From sequence record NC_054896.1: 51,014 nucleotides of DNA; one strand, 5' to 3'. The position numbers and the translations under genes were made by a program. How positions within the stretch are numbered: the first letter of the stretch is position 1; every line of letters begins with the position of its first letter. Positions 6,161-48,513 of this stretch are shown in pieces. Below the pieces are notes generated by a model. The model saw only the letters and a list, made by a program, of their open reading frames with translations, was not told the DNA's origin and made no database searches. This DNA comes from Escherichia phage tiwna.

Positions 6161-7728
6161 TGATCATATGGGAAGATTTGACGGCGGCGCAAAAGCGAGC
6201 CATTAAAGAAATCAGTGAGCATTCATTCGAAAAGATGATCAGAATCTGGTTCCAATTATTGCAGGGGCAAAAATTCCAGAGCAACTGGCATTTTAGCTTA
6301 TTGTGCAGTGAGGTAGAGAAGATCATCAATGGAGAGTCGCAGAATGTGATTTTCAACATTACGCCAGGTAGCGGCAAGACTGAGATTTTCTCGATCCACA
6401 TGCCACCCTACGCGTCATTGAAAAGCCGGAAAGTGAGAAACCTTAACCTTTCGTTTAGTGATGGCCTTGTCCAGCAAAACAGCAACCGGATAAAGGAGAT
6501 TATCGGTTCTCCTGAGTGGCAAGAGCTATGGCCTGGAAAACTGGCAAAGGCGAGCGCTAAAGATCTGATAGTCACCGAAGGCGGCAAGGTTAAATTGCAA
6601 GTTAACTCACGTTCTATTGGCGGCCAGGTAACAGGTTTGCGTGGCGGCTATATGGATGATGGTTTTACTGGTATGCTGGTTCTTGACGATCCAGACAAGC
6701 CGGATGATATGCTTTCTAAGGTCAAGCGCGAGGCTATTCACATGCGGTTAAAAAACACAGTGCGATCGCGTCGAATGAAAGACACCACGCCAATTGTTAT
6801 GGTGCAACAGCGACTACACGTTAATGATTCCACCTGGTTCATGCTTAATGGCGGGATGGGTGGTATTGAGTTTAAAGTCGTGAGCATTCCGGCGCTGGTT
6901 ACGAAAGAATACCGCGAAACGCTTCCTGATTGGTTGAAGCCTGAATTTGATCGTGATGTGCTGTCAAGTAAGCCAGTGATGATAGATGGCGTCGCTCATT
7001 ATTCATTTTGGCCTGCGAAGGAAAGCGCGGAGGAGTTGCTTGCATTGCGCAATGCAGATCCTTACACGTTCGCCAGCCAATACCAACAGCAACCAATCGC
7101 GCTTGGCGGGAACGTGTTTAAAACAGAGTGGTTCCAGTATTACGGAAGCGGCGAAAAGTGCGCACTACCAAAACCGGATCGCTTTGAATACACATTTATT
7201 ACTGGAGATACCGCGCAGAAGGCCGGAGAGCTTAACGACTATTCGGTTTTTTGTTATTGGGGGATGTATAAGAATCGCGTTTACTTCATTGATGGCATTC
7301 GCGGAAAGTGGGAAGCGCCGGATCTTGAATTAAATTTTATTGCCTTCGTTAACCAGTGCTGGAAGCGCAATAAGGAGTGTGGCAGCTTGCGACGTATCCA
7401 CATTGAGGATAAGGCCAGCGGCACGGGTTTGATTCAGGGGGCCAAAAAGAAGATCCCGATTGATATAAATCCCGTTCAGCGAAGCAATGACAAGGTGACG
7501 CGAGCAATGGACGCCGCGCCAGTAATGAGGGCCGGACGTGTGGCGCTGCCAGAAAATCACCCCATGCTGCCTGAGATACTGGCAGAGGTTGCAGCATTCA
7601 CTTTTGATGATTCTCATCCCCATGATGATATTGTCGATAATATAGTTGATGCTGTTAACGTCGAAATGAATTTGGCAGATGATCCGGTAGCAAGGATGAA
7701 AAAGCTGGCAGGTCTACGCAATAAATAG
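6160..7728 (+). CDS. terL: terminase large subunit
   Basis: Walker A TPGSGKTE in the N-terminal ATPase, acidic nuclease-type C-terminus, 522 aa, precedes portal. Confidence 0.8.
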   Translation: MIIWEDLTAAQKRAIKEISEHSFEKMIRIWFQLLQGQKFQSNWHFSLLCSEVEKIINGESQNVIFNITPGSGKTEIFSIHMPPYASLKSRKVRNLNLSFSDGLVQQNSNRIKEIIGSPEWQELWPGKLAKASAKDLIVTEGGKVKLQVNSRSIGGQVTGLRGGYMDDGFTGMLVLDDPDKPDDMLSKVKREAIHMRLKNTVRSRRMKDTTPIVMVQQRLHVNDSTWFMLNGGMGGIEFKVVSIPALVTKEYRETLPDWLKPEFDRDVLSSKPVMIDGVAHYSFWPAKESAEELLALRNADPYTFASQYQQQPIALGGNVFKTEWFQYYGSGEKCALPKPDRFEYTFITGDTAQKAGELNDYSVFCYWGMYKNRVYFIDGIRGKWEAPDLELNFIAFVNQCWKRNKECGSLRRIHIEDKASGTGLIQGAKKKIPIDINPVQRSNDKVTRAMDAAPVMRAGRVALPENHPMLPEILAEVAAFTFDDSHPHDDIVDNIVDAVNVEMNLADDPVARMKKLAGLRNK

Positions 7729-7743
7729 CACTAATTGCTAAAA
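7726..7743 (+). promoter_or_regulatory. conserved box (spacer variant CTAAT) after terL, with atypical spacing to TATAAT at 7749-7754
   Basis: TAGCACTAATTGCTAAAA; half-sites preserved. Confidence 0.4.
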
Positions 7744-7755
7744 AGTTATATAATC

Positions 7756-7782
7756 AAGGCTGGATTTTTCCAGCCTTTTTTA
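7756..7782 (+). terminator. rho-independent terminator after terL
   Basis: Hairpin ggctggatttttccagcc followed by a T-run. Confidence 0.6.
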
Positions 7783-7798
7783 TTATGGAGATTTGACT

Positions 7799-10981: not shown

Positions 10982-11491
10982 ATGGCTAAAATTGGAGCAA
11001 GTTATTTTGACACTATGGCGCGTGCGCTTCCTGGTCAGGTATCCGATACTTCGGCATATAACATCGACGGCGCTTGCGTTCTTGACAAGGAAGACGGCAT
11101 CCCAATCCTGGTTGGCGTGGCTGTTAAGCTAAAAGGCGTTGACTCAATGGGTAATAAGCTGATCGACGCTATTTCTGGTGGTGGTGATGTTCCTTATGGC
11201 GTTGGCATCCGATCGCACTTTCAAACCACGGCTGATAATGGTCGAATGGTTTATGAGGCTGGCGGCGGAATCAACGTTATGACCGAGGGCCGCGTTTGGA
11301 TGATTGGCGATGATTCCGATAAGAGCAAAAAGCCATCTTATCGTGAGCCTGTAAAAATTGATGAAAACACTGGCAAGGTTAAAAGTGCTGGTGCTATCAA
11401 TACCAATTGGATTTACACGGGAGATAAAACCACATTTGGAACTGGCGAAGATGTGTTGACTTTGTTTGAAGTTCAGGTGTTCCCTGGTTAA
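10982..11491 (+). CDS. capsid accessory/decoration-like protein, paralog 1
   Basis: Shares blocks (YNIDG, INV/ILT..G.VW, W.FTGD) with the next gene; followed by its own terminator. Confidence 0.45.
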   Translation: MAKIGASYFDTMARALPGQVSDTSAYNIDGACVLDKEDGIPILVGVAVKLKGVDSMGNKLIDAISGGGDVPYGVGIRSHFQTTADNGRMVYEAGGGINVMTEGRVWMIGDDSDKSKKPSYREPVKIDENTGKVKSAGAINTNWIYTGDKTTFGTGEDVLTLFEVQVFPG

Positions 11492-11497
11492 AATGAT

Positions 11498-11523
11498 AGG
11501 CGCTCAATTGAGCGCCTTTTTTA
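11498..11523 (+). terminator. rho-independent terminator
   Basis: Hairpin ggcgctcaattgagcgcc followed by a T-run. Confidence 0.65.
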
Positions 11524-11542
11524 TTATGTAAGGAGAAATGAA

Positions 11543-12325
11543 ATGGCTAAAGATTATTCATCTGTTATGGGTCTTTCTTGCCCTGGTTGTTTGGTTGATT
11601 CTACTCGCTACAATATTGATGGCACTGGAGTTTGCGGATCTGAGTCGATCATTGCTGGCAAAGTTGTTTTCTTCAAAGAGAGGGTGGAAGGTTATAACAT
11701 ATTTGTTGATCATAAAGAGTATGATGCGGTTGTTGCTGGCGTCGCGCTAAGGAGCAACATAACAACAACGGTTAACGAGGAAGATGGGTATTCTGACTAC
11801 AAGGAAGGAGACTCCATCAACATTTTGACAAGAGGTGTCGTATGGTGTGTAACTCAAACAATTGACTCGCCACCTGAACATGGTGATCTTGTTTATGTTA
11901 ACAATGATGGCTTTGTAGCAAAGAGTGACGGGGATGAAATTGTTGATGGCTGGATTTTTACTGGTGATTTTTACAAGTTTGATGAAACAATCAATATCGT
12001 TGGAGTTAGAATCACTCCTTTGCATCACAGAAAATACCCACTAACAGCGGCAATAATTGAGGCAGATGGCGATTATGTTGAGGGAACGCCAACAAGAAAC
12101 AACGTTCAGCTTAAAGTAACCGTAGCTCCTGAGTGGGCAGATGATAAGACTGGTCAATGGGTAATAACAAATCCTCAAAGTCCAAAGGTGGCAACAATTA
12201 GCCAAACAGGTCTGGTTGTTCCTTCTGGAGTTGGGGGTAGTGTTAATGTTAACTGGACCGCAAATGACGGTTCGGGCGTTGCGGATCAGTTCGATATAGT
12301 TTTTGAGAAAACCGTAGGCGAATAA
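11543..12325 (+). CDS. capsid accessory protein, paralog 2, with C-terminal extension
   Basis: AGGAG 7 nt before ATG 11543 (the overlapping track ORF at 11538 is too close to the RBS); N-terminal half is paralogous to 10982. Confidence 0.45.
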   Translation: MAKDYSSVMGLSCPGCLVDSTRYNIDGTGVCGSESIIAGKVVFFKERVEGYNIFVDHKEYDAVVAGVALRSNITTTVNEEDGYSDYKEGDSINILTRGVVWCVTQTIDSPPEHGDLVYVNNDGFVAKSDGDEIVDGWIFTGDFYKFDETINIVGVRITPLHHRKYPLTAAIIEADGDYVEGTPTRNNVQLKVTVAPEWADDKTGQWVITNPQSPKVATISQTGLVVPSGVGGSVNVNWTANDGSGVADQFDIVFEKTVGE

Positions 12326-12351
12326 CTAATAGCATAAAAAAACATTGCACG

Positions 12352-12368
12352 TTTAACAAAAAGTGCTA
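12352..12368 (-). promoter_or_regulatory. conserved palindromic box, inverted copy inside the late operon
   Basis: TTTAACAAAAAGTGCTAT, directly upstream of a terminator-like hairpin and the major capsid RBS. Confidence 0.4.
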
Positions 12369-12374
12369 TCATCT

Positions 12375-12400
12375 AGGCCGTTACATTTAGCGGCCTTTTA
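12375..12400 (+). terminator. weak terminator/attenuator hairpin
   Basis: Hairpin ggccgttacatttagcggcc followed by a short T-run. Confidence 0.4.
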
Positions 12401-12413
12401 TGGAGGAAACAAA

Positions 12414-13385
12414 ATGGCTAAAAAATACGATGAATTAGATGCTACTATTGTAGCAAATCATTTACAGGTTCAGGGCGTTAAGGGTGATGCTTCTGATATG
12501 GGTATTTGGACCGCTCAAGAGCTACACAAGATCCGCTCAACCGCATACGAGAAAGAATATCCGGCAGGTTCCGCGCTTCGCGTATTCCCTGTAACAAACG
12601 AGCTTTCTGATACTGATAAGACTTTTGAGTATCAGACTTTTGACAAGGTTGGCTACGCGAAAATTATCGCCGACTACACCGACGATCTACCGACTGTGGA
12701 TGCGCTGATGACTTCTGAGTTTGGCAAAGTGTTCCGCCTGGGTAACGCTTATCTGATCTCCATTGATGAGATTAAAGCAGGTCAGCGAACTGGCAAGAGC
12801 CTGTCAACTCGCAAGGCTAACGCTGCGCAAAATGCGCATGATCAGATGATTAACTTCCTGGTGTTCAAAGGTTCCAAGCCTCATAAGATCGTTTCCGTTT
12901 TCGATCATCCTAACCTTACGAAAATTGCATCCAAAGGATGGATTAGCAATGACGGCAATACCAAGTTCCCGCAGGTAGCAAGCGATGAACTGGAGGCTGC
13001 AATCGAAACGATCGAGGAAGTGACCAAAGGTCAGCACCGCGCGACCAATATCCTGATCCCGCCGTCCATGCGCAAAGTCCTGACGGTTCGAATGGAAAAT
13101 ACCACTGAAAGTTATCTGGAATACTTCCAGAAGCAAAACGGCGGTATCACTATCGACTCTATCGCAGAGCTTGAGGATATTGACGGCAAAGGTACGAAAG
13201 GTTGCTTGGTTTACGAAAAAGATCCAATGAACATGAGCATTGAGATTCCAGAAGCGTTTAACATGCTTCCTGCGCAGCCAAAAGACCTACATTTCAAGGT
13301 TCCTTGCACTTCCAAGTGTACTGGCCTTACGATTTATCGTCCGTTTACGATGGTGCTCATTACCGGCTTGAAAAAAGCTGAGTAA
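12414..13385 (+). CDS. major capsid protein
   Basis: About 323 aa; strong RBS ggagg; followed by a strong terminator (high-expression structural gene); position in the head module. Confidence 0.6.
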   Translation: MAKKYDELDATIVANHLQVQGVKGDASDMGIWTAQELHKIRSTAYEKEYPAGSALRVFPVTNELSDTDKTFEYQTFDKVGYAKIIADYTDDLPTVDALMTSEFGKVFRLGNAYLISIDEIKAGQRTGKSLSTRKANAAQNAHDQMINFLVFKGSKPHKIVSVFDHPNLTKIASKGWISNDGNTKFPQVASDELEAAIETIEEVTKGQHRATNILIPPSMRKVLTVRMENTTESYLEYFQKQNGGITIDSIAELEDIDGKGTKGCLVYEKDPMNMSIEIPEAFNMLPAQPKDLHFKVPCTSKCTGLTIYRPFTMVLITGLKKAE

Positions 13386-13395
13386 TTAGATAACA

Positions 13396-13423
13396 TGGGG
13401 AGCCTTAAGGGTTCCCCTTTTTT
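13396..13423 (+). terminator. rho-independent terminator after the major capsid gene
   Basis: Hairpin ggggagccttaagggttcccc followed by a T-run. Confidence 0.7.
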
Positions 13424-13441
13424 ATTTATGGAGTGCATAAA

Positions 13442-13708
13442 ATGAGCAAAAATTTAAAACTTAAAGTAACTGGCGTTTGCATGATTATTATGGACGGTAA
13501 GCGTTATCATCCTGGTGATGAAATTGAAATTGAATCTGAACGCATTAATGATTCCGCAATTGAATACCTGATCGCTCGCGGTGATGTGGAAGTTAAAGAC
13601 AATTCCGAAATTAACGAGCAAATCAAGGCGAAAGCGGAGAAGAAGCGCAAAAAAGATCCTACCGAGGGTAAGAGCCGCAAAGAGCTAGAGGACGGCGGCG
13701 AATATTAA
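13442..13708 (+). CDS. hypothetical head-associated protein (88 aa)
   Basis: GGAG 8 nt before ATG 13442. Confidence 0.45.
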
Positions 13709-13754
13709 TAATTGGGGCGCTTATGCGCCCTTTGTCACATCTGGAGAAAACAAA

Positions 13755-14174
13755 ATGGTAGATGAATTTTACACAGACGCTGAAATCATGCAGCAAATCG
13801 TAAAGTTAGCGCCGCCAATGAAACAAGTTGATCCCGATTTAATTGTTGCATGGATTGAGCTTGCTAAAGAGTTTGTTTGTAAAAAGCGGTTTAAAAACTC
13901 ATACCCGAAAGCGGTTGCGCTTTACACTCTTCACCTTATGACCTTAGACGGGGCAATGAAACAGGAAGGTGAAAGCGTAGAAAGCTATTCCCGCCGCGTT
14001 GCCTCGTTCACTCTGACTGGTGAGTTTAGTCAGACGTTTGATCGAATTTCTTCCGATACAAGCGGAAAGCAGATCCGACAAACGCCGTGGGGAAAAATGT
14101 ACGAAGTGTTAAACCGTAAGCACGGTGGCGGTTTTGGTCTTGTAACTGGATTGCGCCGGAGATGTTGCCGATGA
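13755..14174 (+). CDS. putative head-tail connector protein
   Basis: RBS ggag; position between capsid and tail genes. Confidence 0.45.
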
Positions 14175-14545
14175 ATTACAATGAGATTGCAAGAATGGCT
14201 ACTGCTGGGATTAACTTTTTCAGCGACGCCAACGGAATGTTTAAGTGTATCACGCAGCAGGGAGGGGTTGAGATTATCGGAGGTGAGGAATTTATAAAGC
14301 CGGAGATTTCAGTGATGATAAAGGGGCTTGTTAGATCCCCAAGAGTTAGAGAGGTTGACGGTGAAACAATCCGAGTAACCGACAAGTTGGGGATATTCAC
14401 CAATGAAACTGAGATCAAAAATGGTTATCAGATTGAAATTGATGGCGATCGTTATGTTGTTGTTGAAGCAAGACCAGTCAGGCAGACTAACATCACGGCG
14501 GCTTATCGTCCGATATTAAGGAGGATTGCTGTGCATGGCGGATAA
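14171..14545 (+). CDS. putative head-tail joining protein
   Basis: GGAG 10 nt before ATG 14171; overlaps the upstream stop. Confidence 0.45.
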
Positions 14546-14978
14546 TTATAAGATCAGGGAATTTCACGGTGATATAAGCAGGTGGATTGATTCAGTAAGC
14601 AGCGGCCTTGTTGATTGCGTTGAAATGTTTGCGACAAACGTCCACGAGGATCTTGTAAATCGCTCGCCAGTTGATACGGGGCGATATAAAGCTAACTGGC
14701 AGATAACAGCAAACAAGCCGCCGCTATATGCGCTCAACCAATACGATCGCGATGGTAGTAAAACCATTGCAGAAGGCAAGCGAGCAATATATGCAATCAT
14801 GCGTGGCGGTGGCGCGGTGCGGTCAATCTATTTTTCAAACATGCTTATTTACGCCAACGCGCTTGAATACGGTCATTCAAAACAAGCGCCGTCCGGCGTA
14901 CTTGGAATCGTGGCGGTAAAGCTGCGATCTTATATGGCTAAGGCAATAAAGGATTCGAGGGCAAAAAATGCACTATGA
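14535..14978 (+). CDS. putative head-tail joining protein
   Basis: GGAGG before ATG 14535; overlaps the upstream gene end. Confidence 0.45.
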   Translation: MADNYKIREFHGDISRWIDSVSSGLVDCVEMFATNVHEDLVNRSPVDTGRYKANWQITANKPPLYALNQYDRDGSKTIAEGKRAIYAIMRGGGAVRSIYFSNMLIYANALEYGHSKQAPSGVLGIVAVKLRSYMAKAIKDSRAKNAL

Positions 14979-15369
14979 TTTAATGTTGGCGGCAAGAAAG
15001 GCGCTGGCGGCTGAATATGAATCACGATTCAAGATCTACTATGAAAACGTTGATTTTGTACCGCCTGGAGACGGTTCTATGTGGTTAAAATTTGACTACA
15101 TGGAAGCAGACACGGATCGCATATCTCTTGATAGAAAATGTGTTTCTTATATCGGCTTGGTTCAGGTTGGAATTGTCATTCCTCCTGGCGGTGGCACTGA
15201 TAACGCTCGTTTGCTGGCTAAAGAGATTGCGAGATTTTTCTATGATGGTAGAATGTTTGAAACTGGCTATATTAGCGAGGGAGCAAACGTCCACGCATTA
15301 CTAAAAAGTGAAACAGGTTGGTTCTTGCCGATCCGTTTCAGTGTTAGGCTTGATACAAAGGAGGAATAA
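14968..15369 (+). CDS. putative tail completion protein
   Basis: Position just upstream of the major tail gene; overlapping start. Confidence 0.4.
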   Translation: MHYDLMLAARKALAAEYESRFKIYYENVDFVPPGDGSMWLKFDYMEADTDRISLDRKCVSYIGLVQVGIVIPPGGGTDNARLLAKEIARFFYDGRMFETGYISEGANVHALLKSETGWFLPIRFSVRLDTKEE

Positions 15370-15371
15370 TC

Positions 15372-16034
15372 ATGCACTTGCCTAATGGTTCTCAAATTTT
15401 CATCGGCGTTAACATGGGTGAGCCAATTAGCGCTACTCAAATCAGCAATGCTGATAATCCTGTTTTTACAACCGAAAACACTCAAAGCATCAAAAAAGGC
15501 GCTTATGTTCTTATTGAAACATCTTCCTGGGGCAAACTTGTTAGTCGCGTGCTTCGAGTTAAGGAAGTATCAGATAATGTAAGTGTTACTCTTGAAGGTG
15601 TTAGCACTAAAGATACAAACGTATTTCCAGAAGGACAGAACACAGCGACTTTCCGAGAGGTTAAATCTTGGGTAGAGATTCCTTGCGTACAGGATCTTGC
15701 TCAGGACGGCGGCGAGCAACAGTATTACACTTATCAGTGTTTGGCTGATGACCAGGAGCAGCAGTTACCGACCTACAAGAGCGCAGTTTCTCTTACCTAC
15801 ACTTTCGCGCATGAATATGATAATCCGATTTATCCGATCTTGCGCGAGGCTGAGGAATCCGGCGACGTAACCGCTTTGCGTATGTACGTTCCGAAAGCTA
15901 AAGAGATGCGTTGCTGGGCTGGCGTATTGTCTTTTAATGACATTCCGCAAACCACTATGAACGAAATGGAAACTGTTTCCCTTTCCGTATCTCTGAAAGG
16001 TCGATTTACGTTCTTATCTTCCGACATCAATTAA
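15372..16034 (+). CDS. major tail protein
   Basis: Strong RBS aaggagg; 220 aa; followed by a strong terminator; precedes the chaperone and tape measure genes. Confidence 0.6.
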   Translation: MHLPNGSQIFIGVNMGEPISATQISNADNPVFTTENTQSIKKGAYVLIETSSWGKLVSRVLRVKEVSDNVSVTLEGVSTKDTNVFPEGQNTATFREVKSWVEIPCVQDLAQDGGEQQYYTYQCLADDQEQQLPTYKSAVSLTYTFAHEYDNPIYPILREAEESGDVTALRMYVPKAKEMRCWAGVLSFNDIPQTTMNEMETVSLSVSLKGRFTFLSSDIN

Positions 16035-16038
16035 AACA

Positions 16039-16061
16039 AGGGGCGTTGCGCCCCTTTTTTC
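16039..16061 (+). terminator. rho-independent terminator after the major tail gene
   Basis: Hairpin aggggcgttgcgcccct followed by T6. Confidence 0.7.
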
Positions 16062-16100
16062 ATTCCTGTAAAATCAATCTATCAAATAAATCAATTCCAC

Positions 16101-16119
16101 TTTTAACAAAAAGTGCTAT
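16101..16119 (-). promoter_or_regulatory. conserved palindromic box, inverted copy abutting the chaperone RBS
   Basis: TTTTAACAAAAAGTGCTAT immediately followed by AAGGAG and ATG 16134. Confidence 0.4.
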
Positions 16120-16133
16120 AAGGAGATCTTGAG

Positions 16134-16451
16134 ATGGCAAAGATGAAACTAACGTTAGGCCCACTGCCTGATTTTAAGCTACCTGTTTCTTTCGTGCTTC
16201 CAAATGGTGATGAGCAAGTTATTGTTTTCACAGTACGCCACAAGAAGGCAAGCGAGATTCACGAGCGATACACGGCAGAAAAGCCGATGAGTGACGTAGA
16301 AATGATCACCTTCCTTGCTTCCGGTTGGGATCTGGATGATGAATTTAATGAGGAGAACGTTGCTAAATTGCTGGATTATTACCCGTCTGCGTCATTATCG
16401 CTGACTGGTCATTATATGAAAGCGCTTGCGGGGCAGCGGGTAAAAAACTAA
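16134..16451 (+). CDS. tail assembly chaperone (lambda G-like)
   Basis: About 105 aa directly upstream of the tape measure gene; ends just past a slippery heptamer. Confidence 0.6.
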   Translation: MAKMKLTLGPLPDFKLPVSFVLPNGDEQVIVFTVRHKKASEIHERYTAEKPMSDVEMITFLASGWDLDDEFNEENVAKLLDYYPSASLSLTGHYMKALAGQRVKN

Positions 16452-16768
16452 AGCGGGCGGTTTACCTGTTTTACCTCAAGCCGCCAACTGACGCACAATT
16501 AGAGGCCGTCGGCCTATCCCGTTCAGACTACGAAGGGGAGGAGCCGCCGGAGGTAATTTTTGATGAATCAATGTTTCAATCTTGGGATCTGTTTTGCGCT
16601 ATGCAGACGCAATGGAGATCGACTAGCGGCAGCGTGTATGGGTTCGACTATAACGTTTTGCCTATGCTTTTTGACATTTACAAGATTGAGGATCGGGAAA
16701 TGGCGCTAAATGATTTGCGCATCATGGAACAAAAGGCGCTAGAAATGATTCATTCAAACAAAACATAA
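16134..16768 (+). CDS. tail assembly chaperone frameshift product (GT-like), via -1 frameshift near 16442-16448
   Basis: The -1 frame is open from 16403 to 16768 and overlaps the end of G; slippery A AAA AAC in the G frame. Confidence 0.5.
16442..16448 (+). other. programmed -1 ribosomal frameshift slippery heptamer A AAA AAC
   Basis: X XXY YYZ pattern in the zero frame, 3 nt before the G stop codon. Confidence 0.5.
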
Positions 16769-16790
16769 GCGCCGCAAGGCGCTTTTTTAA
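16768..16790 (+). terminator. rho-independent terminator between GT and the tape measure gene
   Basis: Hairpin agcgccgcaaggcgct followed by T6. Confidence 0.55.
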
Positions 16791-16807
16791 TATCTGGAGG
16801 TTTTAAA

Positions 16808-19489
16808 ATGGCTGAGAAATACGCTGGCCTAACGCTAGGCGTTGACGTGTCGCAGGTCAACAATGCTGTTAAATCATTGCAGCAATTCAAGAAGGCAAAC
16901 GACGACGCAAAAAAAAGCGTTAATGAATTTGTTGATTCTGAGGTTGTGGCGCGACAGCAAGCTAAACAGTTTGCCGAAGAACTGGCGCGCCAGAAAGCAG
17001 AATTTAAGAAAATCCAGGAGTCAATTGATCCCACCGCGTCAAAGATGGATAAGCTGCGAAAAGCAGCGACACAGCTTGATGCGCTATGGAAAAAGGGCGT
17101 TGTTCCTGATGAGACTTTTTTTGAGCTTGGGGCAATTCTTGAGACACAGCAAAACAAGCTGATCGCAACCAAAAAGGCGATGACAGAGGAAGGCCGCGCG
17201 GCGCTTGAGGAATCAAAGAACAAGGCGCGTGCAGCGGAAGAGGCTAAAAAATTCATCCAGGCTTTGCGTGAGCAGGAAGAAGCAGCCGGAAAAAGCAAGT
17301 CTGAATTGCTGGAAATGAAAGCGGCACAGCTTGGAGTTAGCCAGGAGGCGGCGCCTTACATCGCAAGACTGAAAGAGCAGGAAAAGCAGATCCAAAAACT
17401 TGGGATTTCTACAGGCCAATACAATCAAGCAATGAAGCTATTGCCAATGCAGATCACAGACGTGGTGACTTCACTTGCTTCTGGTATGCCCGTTTGGTTG
17501 GTAGCAATCCAGCAGGGTGGACAGATTAAGGATTCTTTTGGTGGCGCATCCAATGCTTTAAAAGCGTTGCTATCTTTCCTGAATCCGGTAAACGTGGCGT
17601 TTGGCTTGCTTTCCGGCACGCTGGCAATTGCTGCATATAATGCATACAAAACACAGACAGAGTTTGAGGCAATTAAAAAAACCGTTCAGGAAACAACTGG
17701 CTTGACTGGTGATTTTGCCGAAAAGATTGCTACCGGAATCCAGGAGCTTTCCGACAAGACAGGCGAAAGCGCCGAAGATCTGGCAAAGGCTTACATCACC
17801 ACGAAAGACGGCGCGAGCGAGGCGATTAAAAAACTGGTTGACGTTGGCATGACTTATGATGACGCAAAAAAGAAAGTCAACGAGTACAAAGGCGCATCTA
17901 GCTTTGTTGGCCTGAATAACGACATTGCAAACCACAAAAATAAAATCCTTGAGTTGGGCGAGTCGTGGTATGAAGTTTTGAAAGCGAAGCGTGATTACGC
18001 TTCCCCGTCCGGCGGCCTGTTAGGTAAAGAGCTTGGCTATGTTAATCCTATGCTTAAGTTTGCACTTAACACTTATGAAGACATTGGAAAGGTCGTAAAA
18101 GATGCGAATAAGGACATGGCGGAACGAGCGGAGCGAATCGACAAAGAAAACCTTGCCTTGAACAGAGTGAGAGCAGCGCAGGAGGCTTTAAACAAAGCCA
18201 TTGAGGATCAGAAGGGCGTGGCGCGTTCGGCTGATGAAGAACTGAAAAAGCGCGCGGCTGAAAACGTGGAGTTCAGACGCAAAGAGCTTGAGGAGATCAA
18301 GAAGCAGGAGCAGAAAAAGAAAGAGGCTAAAGGTGGAATAGTTCGCGGCCCTACTGAGCAGCTTGATAAAGAGTTGTACGTTTTAAAAGCGCAACTGGAA
18401 ACTCTTAAAGAGCATCGCACTGTTAACGATGTTATTTCTCGCCAGCGTAAATCTTTATGGAGCATCGAAAAGCAGATCGAGATCCTGGAGGGTGCGCAGA
18501 GCAAGCGTAAATTGACAGGAGCGGAACAGGCGCTACTAAACGAGCAAAAAGCCGTTCTTGAAATGGCAAGGCAAAAAGCGGAGCTAGGGGATCAGATTGT
18601 TTTGCAGGAGCGCAAAAACAAGCTGGAGCAAGATAGCATTAAGTTTATCCGTGAAACGCAGGCGGCTATTGATGTGCTTGGCCTTAAGCAACTTGGCTAC
18701 ACTGAAAAGCAGATCGAGCGTGAGCTAGAGTTACGCAAGCTGCGCACCGACTACGAGGCGCAAGGCGGAAGCGTTAGCGATGAAGTTTTTCAGCAAATGG
18801 AGGCGAAACTTAAGCAGTATTATCAGACACAGGATGAGGTTCAAGGCAACTGGTTGGCAGGAGCAAAAAACGCATGGGAGATGTTCGCGGAAGATGCAAA
18901 CAATGCCTATGGCAATGTTCAGCAGATCGCAAGCGAGGCGTTAAACGGCCTTACAAACCAATTAGCGAATTTTATCGCTACTGGCAAGGCAAACTTTAAA
19001 GACTTCTCGACGGCTATCATCAAAATGATTATTCAGATGATCACGAAAATGGTTGTCTTTAATGCGTTATCTGGCCTGATGGGTGGTCAAACCTGGACGA
19101 TGGGGAGCCTGCTTAAGAATATTGGCGGATTTGCTGGCGGTGGATACACTGGCGACGGCGGGAAGTATGAGCCAGCCGGAATTGTCCATAAAGGTGAATT
19201 TGTCATGACGAAGGAGGCGACGCAGCGTATCGGGGTAGGCAACTTGTACCGCATGATGCGAGGCTATGCTAACGGCGGCGTTGTTGGTAGTTCCGGCTAT
19301 ACTGGCGGTGGCGCTGTCACTGGTGGAGCACCTCAATTTAACATTGGTGGGATTGATGTTAGCATCAATAACGGCAGCGATCCGAAGGGCATCGAAACTG
19401 GCGTTAAGATGATCTTTACTGATATGATTAAACGTTCCTGTATGCAGGGCGGGGAGGTTTACGAATTTGTTATGAGCAAGCGAGGTTGA
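16808..19489 (+). CDS. tail tape measure protein
   Basis: 893 aa, extensive coiled-coil-like A/E/K/Q-rich sequence, Gly-rich C-terminus; strong RBS ggagg. Confidence 0.8.
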   Translation: MAEKYAGLTLGVDVSQVNNAVKSLQQFKKANDDAKKSVNEFVDSEVVARQQAKQFAEELARQKAEFKKIQESIDPTASKMDKLRKAATQLDALWKKGVVPDETFFELGAILETQQNKLIATKKAMTEEGRAALEESKNKARAAEEAKKFIQALREQEEAAGKSKSELLEMKAAQLGVSQEAAPYIARLKEQEKQIQKLGISTGQYNQAMKLLPMQITDVVTSLASGMPVWLVAIQQGGQIKDSFGGASNALKALLSFLNPVNVAFGLLSGTLAIAAYNAYKTQTEFEAIKKTVQETTGLTGDFAEKIATGIQELSDKTGESAEDLAKAYITTKDGASEAIKKLVDVGMTYDDAKKKVNEYKGASSFVGLNNDIANHKNKILELGESWYEVLKAKRDYASPSGGLLGKELGYVNPMLKFALNTYEDIGKVVKDANKDMAERAERIDKENLALNRVRAAQEALNKAIEDQKGVARSADEELKKRAAENVEFRRKELEEIKKQEQKKKEAKGGIVRGPTEQLDKELYVLKAQLETLKEHRTVNDVISRQRKSLWSIEKQIEILEGAQSKRKLTGAEQALLNEQKAVLEMARQKAELGDQIVLQERKNKLEQDSIKFIRETQAAIDVLGLKQLGYTEKQIERELELRKLRTDYEAQGGSVSDEVFQQMEAKLKQYYQTQDEVQGNWLAGAKNAWEMFAEDANNAYGNVQQIASEALNGLTNQLANFIATGKANFKDFSTAIIKMIIQMITKMVVFNALSGLMGGQTWTMGSLLKNIGGFAGGGYTGDGGKYEPAGIVHKGEFVMTKEATQRIGVGNLYRMMRGYANGGVVGSSGYTGGGAVTGGAPQFNIGGIDVSINNGSDPKGIETGVKMIFTDMIKRSCMQGGEVYEFVMSKRG

Positions 19490-19846: not shown

Positions 19847-19871
19847 AAGCCGCCTTTGTGCGGCTTTTTTC
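19847..19871 (+). terminator. rho-independent terminator
   Basis: Hairpin aagccgcctttgtgcggctt followed by a T-run. Confidence 0.65.
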
Positions 19872-19904
19872 TTGATGTTACAATGAGCAAAAAGGAGGTA
19901 GAAA

Positions 19905-21980: not shown

Positions 21981-22004
21981 ACCCGCCTTGCGCGGGTTTT
22001 TTTG
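21981..22004 (+). terminator. rho-independent terminator
   Basis: Hairpin acccgccttgcgcgggt followed by T7. Confidence 0.7.
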
Positions 22005-22052
22005 TGCCTTTATAATGTGCAAACCAAGAAACAGCACAAAAGGTTAAAAGTC

Positions 22053-29750: not shown

Positions 29751-31879
29751 TTATCACTTAACTTTGAAATTAAATTTCTAATTTCGTTAATTTCTGATTT
29801 TAACATTTCTATTTCCTCTTGCTGTTTTTTTATTAATTCCTCTTGTCTATCTGAGTCAGAGATCATCTCATTTATAGCATTTACAAGCAATGCAGTAACG
29901 CCGCTATAACTTACACCCAAGTAATCAGAGTCTGATATTTTGTAAACAGCCTCCGGTAAAACATTTTGCACATCTTGAGCTATTACCCCAGCCTCCTCCG
30001 AATATATAGAATATTCATCTTCATAAAGATTACTGCGCTTAAAGTAAGTGTAACCCTTGATTGACTTCACTTTTTCTCTAGCGCCCTTAATCTCCTTCAA
30101 GTTTGCTTTCAGTCTAATATCTGACGTGCTGACCCATTGAACACATGAGGCGTAACCAGCATCATTAAATCCGAAAATCGCACCCCTTACATTAAAATGA
30201 GCCGCGCAACCTCCACTGCTATATCTGACAACATCAAGACCAGCAACCCATTCATAACCCCACCGAACGGCCTTAAAGATGCTTGAGGCTGCATCATCTG
30301 TTGGCAACTCAACAAGAAGACCAGACGCTCTATCCCTCCAGTCAGTAAAAGCACCTCCATATACTTGACCGCCAATTAGAGCATTGCCTCCGCCAATTCT
30401 AGATCCTGAAACTCTAATGCCATTTGCGTTATTATCAATAGGCCATATGGTTAAAAGACCGTTAAGGTGAGCTTGATATGCCTCCCATGTAAAAACATTT
30501 CTACCGTTTGCGAATGTCTGTAATATGCCGTCCCCACCTTGCTTAAACCCGGTGTCGCTATCACCTATAACTAACGAATTAGACCCAAGTGAATTTATAA
30601 TGCCTCTACCAATTGTTATTGTATTGTAATTTATGGCGTTTCCGCTTTCGTCAAATTGATAATAGTTTGTATCTCCACCTTCTCTTGTTACCTGTATTGT
30701 TGCTTTAGCTGTACCACCTATAATTTCATTGTAGACCCTTGAGTATGAAAGCTGCACACCTTCTGCGTTCTTGTTTCTAAGGTAAAGAATGCCTGATGCT
30801 TCTCCGTTGTTGTTATCAAGATTTACCCCCAAGAATACAGGGATATGATTTGTCGCAAGCCCTAAATTGTGCCTTACTCCATCGGGAGTTGTTGCGCCTG
30901 TACCGCCAGCGCCAATAGAAAGCGCATATGTAGCGTTATCACTATTACTTGCAACTCTCCATTCTCCATTGTTAGCAATCCTCAATTCATAGCTTGCTTG
31001 CGGATTAGCGAAGCTGTTGTAATCGCCAGGCGTTGAATGAGAAGCCGGATCATTGCTAATTACCGCTTGAACCTGCAACACTTTTCTTGCTTCAGCCTTA
31101 TCAGTAAGATCATTAAGGTTTTGATCCTTATGGAGAATATTTTCAGGATTTACTTGTTGCGCCCATTGCATAGCCTCATCTCTTGCAGATTCAGCGGCTG
31201 ATTTTGCACTTTCAGCATAATTCTTGGCATTGTCAGCCTCATTTTTAGCATTAATTGCGCCATCTCTAGCTGATTCAGCCTCTGATTTAATGCTTGTAAC
31301 CTCAACAACTGCAGAGTCCTTTATTTGCTGAGTCTGATCTTTAATTGATTGAGCCTCGTTTTTTATGGCGTTAGTTTCGCTTACTGCGTCATCTTTGATC
31401 TTCTGAGTTTCAGCTAGGGCAGAATCCTTTATCTGTTGAGTGTCATTTTTTAATTGCTCAGTGGCTGCGCGATCTGTTGCTACTTGTTGCGCAGACTCCT
31501 TAACTTGATTCACCAGATCCTTTAAGCCATCCAAATCAAAATCTTTAAAAAACTCTATTGCTTCTGCAATTTCTGTTTCCTTGCTCTGGTAATAACGCAA
31601 AGTTTCCGCTACATCCTGCGCAAGCCCGTCAACCGTTAACGAGTCATGAAGCAAGATCAGGTAATTTGTTTGCTGAACTACTTCACCGCCAGTAGTAATG
31701 GCGCGAATGCTTGTATCGCTAATCACCTCTGTGATCACGGCAGCTTGCAAAGGTTGAGTAAGAAAGAAAATAGTTGCACCTGGGCGAATCAATGTTAATT
31801 GCTCGCGCCATTTTGTTTCGTAACCAGTAACATAACCTTGAGCGTCCATCGACGCTTGGCCTTGTCTGTAAATCGCCAT
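29747..31879 (-). CDS. tail fibre protein with C-terminal intramolecular chaperone (S74-type) domain
   Basis: C-terminal SDIRLK motif and following about 110 aa resemble self-cleaving chaperone domains; coiled-coil Q/K-rich region; GGAGG RBS before ATG 31879. Confidence 0.65.
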
Positions 31880-31897
31880 TTGTAAAATCCTCCTAAA

Positions 31898-31914
31898 TAG
31901 CACTTTTTGCTAAT
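31898..31914 (+). promoter_or_regulatory. conserved palindromic box (perfect palindrome TAGCA-N5-TGCTA) abutting the tail fibre RBS
   Basis: TAGCACTTTTTGCTAAT; lies between the primase terminator and the tail fibre RBS. Confidence 0.4.
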
Positions 31915-31943
31915 GACAATGCAGATAATAGCATTTTCAAATG

Positions 31944-31970
31944 CAAAAAAAAACCCCGCATAAGCGGGGC
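31944..31970 (-). terminator. rho-independent terminator after the primase-like gene
   Basis: Hairpin ccccgcataagcgggg with a T-run on the minus strand. Confidence 0.65.
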
Positions 31971-32970: not shown

Positions 32971-33447
32971 TTAGCTATTCGTGCTGTTATCACCTTTGTA
33001 GAATCTTCCGCCTGGTTCGTAGTCTGAATTTTTGACTACGCGCAACATTTCGTATTTGTCGCAACGGGTAGTAAGAGGCTTGCCGTTAGAATCAAACCGC
33101 AGATCTGGACGACAAAACGAGGCGCGGTATCCTTTGCATCCATTATATTTGTAGTCGTTATGCACCTTTTGTGCTCCAGCGGCTGAAATCATACCACGCT
33201 TTCGCCACTGGTTAACGACTTGCTGAGATACGCGCAGACGTCGAGCCATAGCAGGAACACCGCCGTAATACTCGATCAGAATGTCAAGGCGAGATTTTAG
33301 GCTTGCTTTTACCTCATCTCGCAGGATAAGAAATCCGGTTCGGTGTTTTCGTGGCTTTTTGTCTTTACCTCGTCGCGTTCCGTTGTTACCGTTAATAGTG
33401 CGCTTGTCGATCTCACCCGTAGACACTGCAATTCGTGCATCTTTCAT
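32971..33447 (-). CDS. putative DNA-binding protein (HTH)
   Basis: Candidate HTH segment AMARRLRVSQQVVNQWRKRG; basic N-terminus; divergent from the helicase gene. Confidence 0.45.
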   Translation of the reverse strand: MKDARIAVSTGEIDKRTINGNNGTRRGKDKKPRKHRTGFLILRDEVKASLKSRLDILIEYYGGVPAMARRLRVSQQVVNQWRKRGMISAAGAQKVHNDYKYNGCKGYRASFCRPDLRFDSNGKPLTTRCDKYEMLRVVKNSDYEPGGRFYKGDNSTNS

Positions 33448-33459
33448 CTAGTCACCTCA

Positions 33460-33477
33460 TAGCATTTTTTGTTAAAA
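33460..33477 (+). promoter_or_regulatory. conserved box with -10 TATTAT at 33497-33502, in the divergent region between the HTH and helicase genes
   Basis: TAGCATTTTTTGTTAAAA with the 19-bp spacing to the -10. Confidence 0.5.
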
Positions 33478-33534
33478 CAGTTTATTGTAATGAGTCTATT
33501 ATATACTCCAAATGGCATTTTTTAAAGGTTTAAG

Positions 33535-35966: not shown

Positions 35967-36031
35967 CTGGCGCGATGGATTGCGCCATAATTCAATAACG
36001 CGAGATGGCTTTTAATAGCGGAGAAATGAAA

Positions 36032-37019: not shown

Positions 37020-37065
37020 TAGCACTTTTTGTTAAAACGCCCGGCCTAGTGTCGGGCATAATTAT
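37020..37065 (+). promoter_or_regulatory. conserved box plus hairpin plus -10 CATAAT; left arm of the ~46-bp inverted repeat
   Basis: TAGCACTTTTTGTTAAAAcgcccggcctagtgtcgggCATAAT, nearly identical to the reverse complement of 40234-40279. Confidence 0.55.
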
Positions 37066-40233: not shown

Positions 40234-40279
40234 CAAATATACCCGACACTAGGCCGGGCGTTTTAACAAAAAATGCTAT
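40234..40279 (-). promoter_or_regulatory. conserved box plus hairpin plus -10; right arm of the ~46-bp inverted repeat
   Basis: Reverse complement reads ATAGCATTTTTTGTTAAAAcgcccggcctagtgtcgggTATATT. Confidence 0.55.
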
Positions 40280-40470
40280 TCCATACGCTTTACCGTAACC
40301 AGTAATACACCATCATCATTGCATAAAACATGTTCAGTGGTGCTAAAAGCGCGCATATCTGAATAAAGTAGCGTAAGTAAAGCATGAATAAAATCCTCAT
40401 GTGATATTGAATTTACGGCGCAGTGCTTCAAGATCTTGTCTATTAGCTTTTGCCTGGAACAATTCATCAT
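40276..40470 (-). CDS. hypothetical protein (64 aa)
   Basis: GGGGAG RBS; stop codon is the TAG of the box; overlaps the upstream gene by 74 nt out of frame. Confidence 0.4.
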   Translation of the reverse strand: MMNCSRQKLIDKILKHCAVNSISHEDFIHALLTLLYSDMRAFSTTEHVLCNDDGVLLVTVKRME

Positions 40471-40792
40471 CGCCCATCTCCCCTATTCTCGCCATATCCC
40501 TGATCCAGTCGTTGCGCATACCATCCAGGCTATACAATTCGAATCCGAAAGGCCGCTTTGACGATCCTTTGGACCAGTATTTACCGCAGACCCCATCTAT
40601 ATAGCCAGCCGTCATCATTCTTGCGCAAAATTCCTTAGATGCAAGGCTGGCGAACATTCGCGGCGTAAGTCCGGCGGCCCGTGCGAGCCGCTCACATTCT
40701 CTATGCTGATAGATAAATTTGGCTATGTGCTGCCTGTTAAACCAGTCGTATGACTCACACCATTTATACAGATCAAGCAAAAACATAATCAT
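40397..40792 (-). CDS. hypothetical protein (131 aa)
   Basis: ATGA coupling to the upstream ATPase gene. Confidence 0.45.
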   Translation of the reverse strand: MIMFLLDLYKWCESYDWFNRQHIAKFIYQHRECERLARAAGLTPRMFASLASKEFCARMMTAGYIDGVCGKYWSKGSSKRPFGFELYSLDGMRNDWIRDMARIGEMGDDELFQAKANRQDLEALRRKFNIT

Positions 40793-42441: not shown

Positions 42442-42659
42442 TTGATCCGCTCTATTGCAACCAGAAGTCGATCAGGCTGGCGGTCGCTGTAGCATTCTCC
42501 TGTAATCCCATCCTTAAACGTAAAGTAAAGCGCCTTATGATATGAAAAACCAATCAGCCAACCTACCGCCGTTTTTTTGATGGGCCTGACTATATCGCCA
42601 GGCTTGAAAGTCTTTGTGGTAGAATGCGTTACTTTGTAACGGTTTTCACTGTTTATCAC
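42438..42659 (-). CDS. hypothetical protein (73 aa)
   Basis: ATGA coupling with the upstream gene. Confidence 0.45.
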   Translation of the reverse strand: MINSENRYKVTHSTTKTFKPGDIVRPIKKTAVGWLIGFSYHKALYFTFKDGITGECYSDRQPDRLLVAIERIK

Positions 42660-43042
42660 AGATATTTACCCTCAAAAAGATAACAGCCGCCAGCAGAGAA
42701 TCCGACCTCTTCACGGTACAGGTTCCAGCGGTCGCCGCACTCATCAAAAACATAACCCGCAACGCTTCCAAGCGGTCGCCCTTTCTCGATCTGGTATCGC
42801 TTGCCCTGCTTAAAGTGCTTTTTGCACGGCATGTTATGATCTACAAACGTGCAAAGAACGGTTTTTGTGTTAATGGCGCGGTAATCATCTCGGTTTGCTG
42901 GAAGCCAGCGGCTACCCTTAACAAGCGTCTTAACCTGGAACTCTTCCACCTCGATCACATCATCACTTCCTGCAATCTTCTGATAAACCGTTTTAAAACG
43001 GCCTTTCATCAATACGTTGGTTTCATTACAGATAACATTCAT
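42656..43042 (-). CDS. hypothetical protein (128 aa)
   Basis: GGAG RBS; downstream of the box at 43097. Confidence 0.45.
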   Translation of the reverse strand: MNVICNETNVLMKGRFKTVYQKIAGSDDVIEVEEFQVKTLVKGSRWLPANRDDYRAINTKTVLCTFVDHNMPCKKHFKQGKRYQIEKGRPLGSVAGYVFDECGDRWNLYREEVGFSAGGCYLFEGKYL

Positions 43043-43096
43043 GATCAGATCTCCTTTGTTTGTTCGATGTGATTATGCCAGGTTTTTACACCTGGC

Positions 43097-43115
43097 TTTT
43101 AACAAAAAGTGCTAT
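43097..43115 (-). promoter_or_regulatory. conserved box, minus orientation, with -10 at 43062-43067
   Basis: TAGCACTTTTTGTTAAAA, hairpin gccaggtgtaaaaacctggc, then CATAAT. Confidence 0.5.
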
Positions 43116-48456: not shown

Positions 48457-48513
48457 CGCCAGGCGCAAAGCCTGGCATAATAGCCTCATCGAAACGAGAT
48501 TGAGGAAACAAAA

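Follow-up and report, generated by a model that had tools for sequence, protein, structure and literature searches.

The window, by which we mean the whole 51,014-nucleotide stretch of DNA analysed, is a nearly complete genome of a T1-like phage (Drexlerviridae). Three late structural genes, encoding the major capsid protein, the tape-measure (tail) chaperone and a lateral tail fibre that carries an S74 chaperone domain, are each preceded by a short box that runs opposite to its usual orientation relative to the downstream gene. The initial annotation had recorded these boxes, identified the genes and noted that no space is left downstream for a spacer and −10 element. On all of these points our analysis agrees. 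The capsid box, said to lie about 25 nt upstream of the ribosome-binding site, is 32 nt from the GGAGG.

12350 to 12369, minus strand: inverted box of the major capsid gene, reading ATAGCACTTTTTGTTAAACG; 12352-12369 reads TTTAACAAAAAGTGCTAT on the plus strand
12402 to 12406, plus strand: capsid GGAGG (ATG at 12414)
16100 to 16119, minus strand: inverted box of the tail chaperone gene, reading ATAGCACTTTTTGTTAAAAG; 16101-16119 reads TTTTAACAAAAAGTGCTAT on the plus strand
31897 to 31916, plus strand: inverted box of the tail-fibre gene, reading ATAGCACTTTTTGCTAATGA; 31897-31914 reads ATAGCACTTTTTGCTAAT on the plus and TTAGCAAAAAGTGCTAT on the minus strand

The boxes belong to a repeat family. 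Allowing up to three mismatches, the motif AACAAAAAGTGCTAT occurs 23 times in the window against 2.9 expected, a count reached in 0 of 100 shuffles. The box is the published 21-nt direct repeat of T1 and TLS, aaATAGCACnnnTTGnTAAAA (PMC11447400). All three inverted copies match this sequence on the strand opposite to the gene, and the TLS repeat table includes the capsid copy as DR7, on the negative strand (PMC11447400). T1/TLS repeats point along the direction of transcription and precede a start codon by ~76 nt. Both traits recur in the window's ordinary copies; the three copies show neither, being inverted and 14–44 nt from the start codon.

What appears to be new here, judged from the sequence, is the match between the T1-family repeat and the enterobacterial marbox, the binding site of MarA, SoxS and Rob. 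Inverted copies and a link to the marbox are not discussed in the paper describing the repeat (PMC11447400), and our literature search found no paper linking marboxes to T1-like phages. The published definition of a MarA site, gcannwwntgnnaaa (PMC12052159), has 21 exact matches in the window, mostly box copies, against 1.46 expected. Similarly, 19 matches to the classical 20-mer AYnGCACnnWnnRYYAAAYn were found with at most one mismatch (1.2 expected). The capsid box is a perfect match to both forms, and the fibre box has one mismatch to the first (AAT for AAA). A matrix of 99 boxes, anchored solely on RYAGCA and a −10 at fixed distance, obeys the degenerate marbox code at its free positions: C7 77%, W10 92%, R13 90%, Y14 89% (C = T), Y15 90% and A16–18 83–86%. 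The exception is position 19, which is A rather than Y; the same is true of micF.

The geometry of ordinary copies is also that of a marbox promoter. The usual box lies upstream of a −10 hexamer, without a −35 element, and in four genomes the separation is exactly 18 bp for nearly every box. Orientation relative to the −10 is strict across ~55 sites. In class II promoters a forward marbox overlaps the −35 position, and the micF marbox is centred near −41. The E. coli micF sequence (ACAGCACTGAATGTCAAAAC, 18 nt, TAGAAT) has the same 20 + 18 + 6 layout as the phage box promoters. Hence, ordinary copies share with micF-type class II promoters of MarA, SoxS and Rob (RamA) a 20-bp asymmetric site with GCAC and YAAA elements, forward orientation, 18 bp to the −10, a centre near −41 and no usable −35. 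They differ from the E. coli class II promoters in that ~20 near-consensus copies occur in one 51-kb virulent phage genome, in that position 19 is A, and in that binding of a host protein is here a sequence-based prediction. We also considered class I activation, as at E. coli mar (marRAB), where 16 bp separate a backward box from the −35 downstream of it. Because the start codons are 14–44 nt from the three inverted boxes, no class I promoter fits downstream, and this assignment was rejected.

We examined the position of each inverted box with respect to promoters, with all start sites predicted from −10 positions. The capsid region contains the following features.

about 12336 to 12342, plus strand: conserved A-tract upstream of the capsid promoter
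12345 to 12372, plus strand: capsid promoter; −35 TTGCAC (12345–12350), 16-nt spacer, TG (12364–12365), −10 TATCAT (12367–12372)
12376 to 12399, plus strand: hairpin (12376–12395) and T run between the capsid promoter and the Shine–Dalgarno sequence (SD); fold −12.6 kcal/mol

The capsid box (about −29 to −10) supplies three parts of a σ70 extended −10 promoter: its spacer, its TG and half of its −10, the first. The T1 GenBank record has a promoter annotated at the orthologous place and a terminator at the place of the hairpin; we infer that the capsid start site lies in the 5′ arm of this hairpin. The promoter is conserved in ~80 relatives. We aligned 45 distinct sequences, drawn from 74 loci. 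Invariant columns are TTG in the −35, TG, TAT and the last T in the −10, AAAA upstream and TTTA.C in the box. The 16-nt spacer is almost invariant even though the capsid proteins have diverged to 77–89% identity. In one Webervirus clade (cp45-type) the capsid marbox is degraded; the −35, TG and −10 remain. Among the three inverted copies, only this one builds a conserved promoter of this kind (−35 TTG, 16–17 bp spacer, TGn, TAnnnT). The sense-strand hexamers within the chaperone and fibre copies (TATAAG, TATCAA, TATTTA and others) do not end in T and are not accompanied by a conserved −35.

At the chaperone gene the box has a different context.

16038 to 16056, both strands: bidirectional terminator 3′ of the major tail protein gene; the −35 TTGCGC (16046–16051) falls within its loop and 3′ arm
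16046 to 16074, plus strand: late promoter of the tail chaperone/tape-measure operon; TTGCGC, 17 bp, TAAAAT (16069–16074)
16076 to 16081, minus strand: TAGATT, −10 of a putative backward-facing box promoter, separated by 18 bp from the box and by 1 bp from the forward −10
16121 to 16125, plus strand: AGGAG, separated from the box by a single A (ATG at 16134)

IMG/VR relatives, including ones that have no box, retain the spacing and key bases of the late promoter, as does T1. The box itself occupies ~+20 to +39 of this promoter. An antisense TAnnnT stands exactly 18 bp from the box in all 13 of the distinct sequences that bear one, and eight different hexamers occur among them. Thus, the class II layout is reproduced facing backward in every one of them. 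Relatives lacking the chaperone box lack the TAnnnT. The combination looks like a backward-facing promoter that abuts the forward −10. The middle bases vary but the antisense T, A and T do not, a pattern that suggests selection for a functional backward promoter.

The fibre gene, on the minus strand, again has a σ70 promoter upstream of the box.

31953 to 31970, minus strand: terminator 3′ of the primase gene, upstream of the tail-fibre gene
31925 to 31933, minus strand: extended −10 promoter of the tail-fibre gene, TGcTATTAT
31893 to 31889, minus strand: GGAGG of an AGGAGG that follows the box after TT (ATG at 31879)

The sequence aTGcTATTAT is conserved in relatives L104 and L107–L111; the corresponding elements are TTGCAT-N17-CATAAT in L105 and L106, and TTGCAA-N17-TAAAAT in T1. 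The box, which is backward for the fibre gene, spans ~+2 to +21 of this promoter. Distant phages have kept just that part of the region which holds the terminator and promoter. With conserved promoters upstream at both the chaperone and fibre genes, the box at each falls downstream of the predicted start. The initial annotation had proposed that the box sits in the mRNA leader or serves as a DNA operator. A leader position therefore stands for these two genes, and fails for the capsid gene, where the box is promoter DNA outside the mRNA.

Two further leader copies were found in addition to the three.

22031 to 22050, plus strand: degenerate forward box in the leader of a gpJ-like gene; it contains the SD (ATG at 22053)
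33459 to 33478, plus strand: box of the helicase promoter, 18 bp from TATTAT (33497–33502); a fourth inverted copy with respect to a divergent regulator gene

The gpJ box lies downstream of a promoter (TTGCGC 21988–21993, 17 bp, TATAAT 22011–22016) and is conserved in T1 and in TLS. The other edge of the helicase box abuts the SD of a divergent gene for a Cro-like regulator (ATG at 33447), whose promoter (−35 33526–33520, −10 33503–33498) reads through the box. In the TLS table, DR8 is the gpJ copy, and DR11 and promoter P57 are orthologues of the regulator/helicase site (PMC11447400).

Taken together, these arrangements point, with a probability that we put at roughly 45%, to the inverted boxes being marbox-type DNA sites within or beside late σ70 promoters, rather than elements of ribosome-binding sites, with an activator that turns early promoters on and hinders late ones. 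The T1-family repeat would be an asymmetric marbox-type site bound by monomeric MarA, SoxS or Rob (RamA in Klebsiella). Forward boxes, ~17 of which drive non-structural genes, would be activator-dependent class II promoters with the micF layout. The inverted copies would act on DNA, each lying inside the RNA polymerase footprint of an activator-independent σ70 promoter of a late structural operon. At the chaperone gene, the backward class II promoter and the forward late promoter would not be occupied together because their −10s are 1 bp apart. Hence, an activator on the boxes would switch on forward promoters and hinder late ones, presumably by steric exclusion or promoter competition. The late promoters would be freed once the activator had been diluted over replicating phage DNA or had decayed.

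Such dual use of one recognition sequence, which had been suggested from the outset, fits what is known of E. coli marboxes, where class II activation occurs alongside repression at sites overlapping a core promoter. The pbpG marbox overlaps the promoter spacer, and the promoter is under repression by MarA, SoxS and Rob. One lpxC marbox overlaps the P1 core promoter and has a class II position for P2. These layouts resemble the capsid site (pbpG) and the chaperone and helicase/regulator sites (lpxC); the likeness is one of layout, orientation and exact register aside. A marbox within the core of a complete σ70 promoter is found both at the capsid gene (−29 to −10) and at the fibre gene (~+2 to +21). 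Conversely, at the σ28 promoter flgBP2 a marbox from −16 to −30, between the −35 and −10, activates. The effect of a core-promoter marbox can thus be positive, and at the capsid promoter it may go in either direction.

On a wider and more doubtful scale, T1-like phages may have ~20 promoters wired to host MarA, SoxS and Rob (RamA). Forward boxes would activate early genes, and backward or overlapping ones would hold down the capsid, tail and fibre promoters. The switch would be timed by dilution or decay of the activator, and phage development would be coupled to the antibiotic and bile-stress regulon. In cells free of stress, Rob is mostly inactive, and there is little MarA or SoxS. It is hard to see how a phage could rely on such proteins, and this counts against the marbox reading.

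It is also possible, though we hold it to be somewhat unlikely, that there is no regulatory coupling. The capsid box would then simply make a good spacer and extended −10 for a strong constitutive promoter; the chaperone and fibre copies would be dispensable leftovers of inserted promoter cassettes, next to a ribosome-binding site by chance. Consistent with this, relatives without the chaperone or fibre box keep the promoter and SD, and a further late promoter (19856–19884) has no box at all. Together with the degraded Webervirus capsid marbox, such relatives indicate that any control by the box is dispensable. An absence of coupling is harder to reconcile with the near-invariant capsid spacer, as σ70 spacers are not normally so constrained, or with the antisense T, A and T of the chaperone site.

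The same DNA-level logic, with activation at −41 and late hindrance, could be exerted by a phage protein in place of the host MarA family. Phmmer detected no MarA/SoxS homologue encoded in the window. Two proteins were considered: the regulator (32971–33447), which folds as a Cro-like HTH domain, and a 130-aa protein that folds as a winged helix. In every lineage examined, the box adjoins the regulator gene and abuts its SD. The box, ATAGCA-N5-TGCTAa, is a partial 17-bp palindrome, the size used by Cro and cI proteins, and any class II activator could work from a centre near −41. However, dimeric Cro-type proteins usually require symmetric operators, and here the two halves are distinct and each conserved as such (ATAGCAC and TAAAAC). 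The strict orientation to the −10, and variable positions that follow marbox degeneracy, also argue against a phage protein. Furthermore, the box is unchanged between E. coli and Klebsiella phages, whereas the regulator is just ~65% identical between them. We therefore regard a phage-encoded binder as unlikely.

The idea that the box controls translation found no support. Compared with shuffled sequence, the three leaders show no excess of structure (z = 0.62, −0.08 and +1.96), and the SD is kept in relatives without the box; neither result favours a translational operator or structured leader. Importance had been attached to the adjacency of box and ribosome-binding site. At ordinary sites the same box edge is packed just as tightly against stop codons, so this proximity looks like a by-product of tight genome packing. 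Action in the leader as an A/U-rich translational enhancer, as a protein site beside the SD, or by pairing with complementary box RNA at the 3′ ends of early transcripts (which could exist because forward copies overlap early-gene stop codons) is very improbable: predicted promoters do place the box in the transcript at the chaperone, fibre and regulator genes, 0–11 nt from the SD in many lineages, but the capsid box is upstream of the predicted start and the gpJ leader copy faces the other way.

What the intergenic repeats of T1-like phages do was among the questions left open in 2024 (PMC11447400). A second question touched here is how T1, which has neither a polymerase nor a σ factor of its own, sets the order of early and late transcription. 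The marbox reading makes both experimentally testable. If true, the early transcription factor of a classic virulent phage family is supplied by the host, in the form of its multidrug-resistance and stress activators, and site placement (forward upstream of a promoter or backward within it) gives opposite effects on early and late genes. It would also matter for phage therapy against Enterobacteriaceae, as salicylate, bile salts, oxidants and mar mutations change activator levels.

At T4 middle promoters (MotA/AsiA), at promoters activated by Mu C and at PRM of lambda (cI), a protein at an upstream box replaces the −35. Mu Mor is centred at −43.5. These systems, including Mu Mor and C, share with the phage box promoters a good −10, no −35 and a conserved upstream box that recruits host polymerase. 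They differ in the sequence of their boxes and in having activators encoded by the phage; in the phage studied here we identified no protein of this type. Symmetric or overlapping divergent promoters are also known, as are the promoter-plus-stem-loop cassettes of T4-type phages. Likewise, opposite-strand −10s overlap at the helicase/regulator site and abut at the chaperone site, and between small early genes there are repeated promoter cassettes that include hairpins. Here, unlike in those pairs, one partner is of the box type and the other an ordinary σ70 promoter, and the choice of direction would depend on the activator.

The repeat of ~20-21 bp carried by T1-like phages (hereafter the box) resembles, judged by its consensus, the mar/sox/rob box (marbox) at which MarA, SoxS and Rob bind in E. 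coli. MarA sites have been defined as gcannwwntgnnaaa (PMC12052159). The window matches this definition exactly at 21 places (1.46 expected), and the majority are box copies. The classical 20-mer marbox consensus AYnGCACnnWnnRYYAAAYn, reportedly from Martin et al. 1999, gives 19 matches with at most one mismatch, where 1.2 are expected in the window. For comparison, the 15-mer core of the box itself has 23 occurrences at up to three mismatches (2.9 expected). A matrix was then built from 99 boxes, with RYAGCA and a −10 at fixed distance as its only anchors. At the free positions the matrix obeys the marbox code, with position 19 as the sole deviation. The positions at which phage boxes vary are the degenerate positions of the marbox (W at 10; Y at 14, with C and T equal).

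Most copies share one layout on the gene strand, in which 18 bp separate ATAGCACTTTTTGTTAAAAC from a −10-like hexamer and the gene comes after a conserved leader, CATCGAAACGA. The standard example of a class II promoter, E. coli micF, has ACAGCACTGAATGTCAAAAC, 18 nt and TAGAAT, with the marbox centred near −41. Nearly every phage box promoter, in four genomes, has this same 20 + 18 + 6 layout. Read backward, the phage box (TTTTAGCAAAAAGTGCTAT) closely resembles GATTTAGCAAAACGTGGCAT, the marbox of the mar promoter. Class II denotes a forward marbox overlapping the −35 position (PMC12052159).

The box is the "21-nt direct repeat" aaATAGCACnnnTTGnTAAAA of phage TLS, which T1, Rtp and Rogue1 also carry (PMC11447400). 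The TLS authors counted 18 intergenic copies "in the direction of transcription", proposed stoperators, enhancers or UP elements, and left the function an open question (PMC11447400). Their supplementary table lists the capsid-site copy, on the opposite strand, as DR7, the gpJ copy as DR8 and the regulator promoter as P57 (PMC11447400). At the capsid site, the GenBank record of T1 carries a promoter prediction and a hairpin. Hence, the repeat family and the capsid-site promoter prediction are already on record. The literature searched gave no link between the marbox and T1-like phages, and no usable T1 transcription maps or Drexlerviridae start sites. Relative to that literature, the putative marbox identity with class II geometry, the conserved backward promoter predicted for the chaperone gene, and the apparent placement of boxes inside late-promoter footprints are new.

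The initial annotation described inverted boxes at the capsid, chaperone and fibre genes. All three are present, in the orientation opposite to the usual copies, and we add two further leader copies.

Inverted and additional leader copies of the box
12352-12369, inverted box, site 1: TTTAACAAAAAGTGCTAT, 32 nt before GGAGG of the major capsid gene (ATG 12414)
16101-16119, inverted box, site 2: TTTTAACAAAAAGTGCTAT, directly abutting AGGAG; ATG 16134, tape-measure chaperone gene
31897-31914, inverted box, site 3: read on the minus strand, then AGGAGG; ATG 31879, 710-aa lateral tail fibre
33459-33478, extra leader copy, site 4: adjoining the SD of the Cro-like regulator gene
22031-22050, extra leader copy: forward, degenerate, in the leader of the gpJ-like gene

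The window is a nearly complete genome of a T1-like phage (Drexlerviridae). In a search with the 6-kb stretch 11000-17000, identity was 95% to Escherichia phage FritzSarasin and ~94% to tunus, JK16 and others; phage PeterMerian has a protein identical to one encoded in the window. Phage T1, with its curated annotation, was the comparison genome.

At site 1, 79 IMG/VR loci and T1 yielded 45 distinct upstream sequences, with capsid protein identity down to ~54%. Invariant columns include an upstream A-tract, TTG of the −35, TG at −15/−14, and TAT and the final T of the −10. TTTA.C of the box is likewise invariant in this set. Among relatives the −35 reads TTGCAC, TTGACG, TTGAAC or TTGACC, and the −10 reads TATCAT, TATTAT, TATATT or TATTCT. 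The spacer measures 16 nt, except in a few sequences where a 1-nt insertion makes it 17 nt. As sequence, this is the signature of a σ70 extended −10 promoter, and the box is predicted to supply its spacer, its TG and half of its −10. The box would thus be part of the promoter and absent from the mRNA. A hairpin spans 12376-12395, and transcription is predicted to start within its 5′ arm (~12379). No co-variation between the capsid-site box and ordinary boxes was seen in Webervirus, and one Webervirus clade has lost the capsid-site marbox with its ordinary boxes unchanged. A weak forward marbox-like sequence at 12344-12363 (ATTGCACGTTTAACAAAAAG), overlapping the backward marbox, arises because the −35 reads TTGCAC; it is not conserved in the TTGACG and TTGAAC lineages and so is probably incidental.

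Upstream of the site 2 box there is a promoter in 23 loci and T1. The −35, TTGCGC, lies within a terminator hairpin and is followed, after exactly 17 bp, by TAAAAT, TACAAT or TAGAAT. TLS-like relatives keep the terminator and promoter (TTGCGC or TTGCGT, 17 bp, TAATAT) without the box, which marks the box as an optional insert between promoter and SD. On the opposite strand it has the ordinary geometry, 18 bp and then TAnnnT, in 13 of 13 distinct box-bearing sequences. Eight different hexamers occur among the 13, always retaining T, A and T, and box-less relatives have no backward TAnnnT hexamer at this site. Only 1 bp separates the backward −10 (16076-16081) from that of the forward promoter (16069-16074), too little for both to be occupied simultaneously. 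The predicted backward transcript in the window would be ~40 nt, running into a bidirectional terminator.

Three late promoters (16046-16074, 19856-19884 and 21988-22016) have one design. A rho-independent terminator hairpin contains the −35 (TTGCGC or TTGTGC) in its loop and 3′ arm, with a spacer of exactly 17 bp before the −10; T1 keeps this design (TTGCGC, 17 bp, TAGAAT or TATAAT). Since the −35 is inside the hairpin, termination of the upstream unit overlaps restart of the next. A simple promoter scan, used only for terminators and the regulator promoter, missed the conserved late promoters of the window because their −35 matches only 3/6 bases.

Site 3 has an extended −10 promoter, aTGcTATTAT, after the primase terminator. 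It is kept in six of eight related loci; the other two have TTGCAT-N17-CATAAT, and T1 has TTGCAA-N17-TAAAAT. The box begins 8 nt past the −10, covering ~+2 to +21, and the marbox would sit within the downstream footprint of polymerase. Relatives with ~65% tail-fibre identity have no box here, and in distant phages the terminator and promoter are the only part of the region retained. On the opposite strand, no ordinary −10 lies 18 bp from the site 3 box.

The site 4 box is that of the helicase promoter, 18 bp from TATTAT, and in every lineage examined its far edge adjoins the SD of the regulator gene, which is divergent. The regulator has a σ70 promoter that reads through the box and whose −10 overlaps the helicase −10 on the opposite strand. 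In the window these elements (TATAAT, minus strand; TATTAT, plus strand; 33497-33503) share 5 bp, and all lineages examined show the overlap, making the promoters mutually exclusive. Start sites are predicted near 12379, 16081, 19891 and 22023 and, on the minus strand, near 16069, 31917 and 33491.

Taken together, the placements suggest action at the level of DNA and promoter, with the capsid box probably being the promoter itself. One alternative, raised by the initial annotation from boxes lying at ribosome-binding sites, is control of late-gene translation, and it is not favoured. The capsid box, put there ~25 nt upstream of the ribosome-binding site, is 32 nt from GGAGG, and this copy would not be transcribed from its own promoter. 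A structured RNA leader at sites 2-4 was rejected, as folding energies are no better than those of shuffled sequence. The gpJ leader copy has the forward orientation, and the SD is kept in relatives without the box. Tight abutment is also common at ordinary sites, where the same box edge overlaps the stop codon of the preceding gene (e.g. TAG 904-906, inside a box) and numerous ORFs terminate within the first four bases of a box; such packing is thus normal for this genome. The interpretation in the initial annotation is partly supported: its proposal of two uses for a single recognition sequence is plausible given E. coli precedents.

Among these precedents is pbpG, a promoter that MarA, SoxS and Rob repress and whose spacer is overlapped by the marbox; site 1 has this layout. 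At lpxC one marbox overlaps the P1 core promoter and is in the class II position for P2, which is the layout of sites 2 and 4. The σ28 promoter flgBP2 is activated by a marbox at −16 to −30; hence the sign of the effect at site 1 is uncertain. In the simplest reading, a single activator would turn on ~17 box promoters of non-structural genes and at once hinder the activator-independent promoters of late structural genes. Speculatively, repression could be lifted late by dilution over replicating DNA or by rapid MarA/SoxS turnover. Of the three inverted sites, only the capsid one bears out a reading of the box itself as an extended −10 promoter; at the other two (chaperone and fibre) the hexamer has no final T, there is no conserved −35 and the start site would lie past the SD. 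Class I activation via the backward marbox is dismissed, since no promoter fits before the start codon.

Coliphages and Klebsiella weberviruses have the same, unchanged box. This constancy fits a conserved host protein as binder, although it is not proof; in the hosts concerned, both RamA and Rob are conserved. A phmmer search with manually entered MarA and SoxS query sequences found no homologue in any window ORF. Two ~130-aa proteins match T1 gp70 and gp73 (annotated "HTH") by position and size:

40397-40792 and 42656-43042, minus strand, two ~130-aa proteins

Neither has a Pfam match. The conserved protein at 40397-40792, the only one of the pair modelled, is predicted to be winged-helix-like (pLDDT 86); it has no significant PDB fold match, and a PDB profile search was also empty. 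The regulator has, by predicted fold, a single Cro-like HTH domain. A phage-encoded MarA-like protein is thus rejected, there being no homologue in the phmmer search and the predicted folds of the modelled 130-aa protein and the regulator being winged-helix-like and Cro-like, not the two-HTH MarA fold.

At ordinary copies, the leader CATCGAAACGA or a close variant begins ~6-7 nt past the −10, near the predicted start site, and extends into the SD (e.g. 48487-48497; 40224-40214, minus strand); it is kept in T1 and Webervirus. GC-rich hairpins often make up the 18 bp between box and −10 (37039-37056, 40242-40259, 43080-43097, 48458-48475 and 35968-35985), two of these being identical (GCCCGGCCTAGTGTCGGG). 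Such spacers may be cassettes in which terminator and promoter overlap, a layout that recalls the promoter-plus-stem-loop cassettes of T4-type phages. The box upstream of the portal gene (7725-7790) is laid out oddly: TATAAT is only 4 nt past the box, which puts the TAGCAC of the box 17 bp upstream of TATAAT, like a −35. Further on come a hairpin, a T run and the SD, an arrangement shared with the capsid gene. The degenerate forward box ACAGCACAAAAGGTTAAAAG in the gpJ-like leader (tail-tip gene, ATG 22053) contains the SD. Its counterparts are ATAGCACAAAAAGGTAAACA in T1 and DR8 in TLS, where the spacing is 1 nt longer. The TTG start at 22002 given for this gene by the ORF lister is probably wrong.
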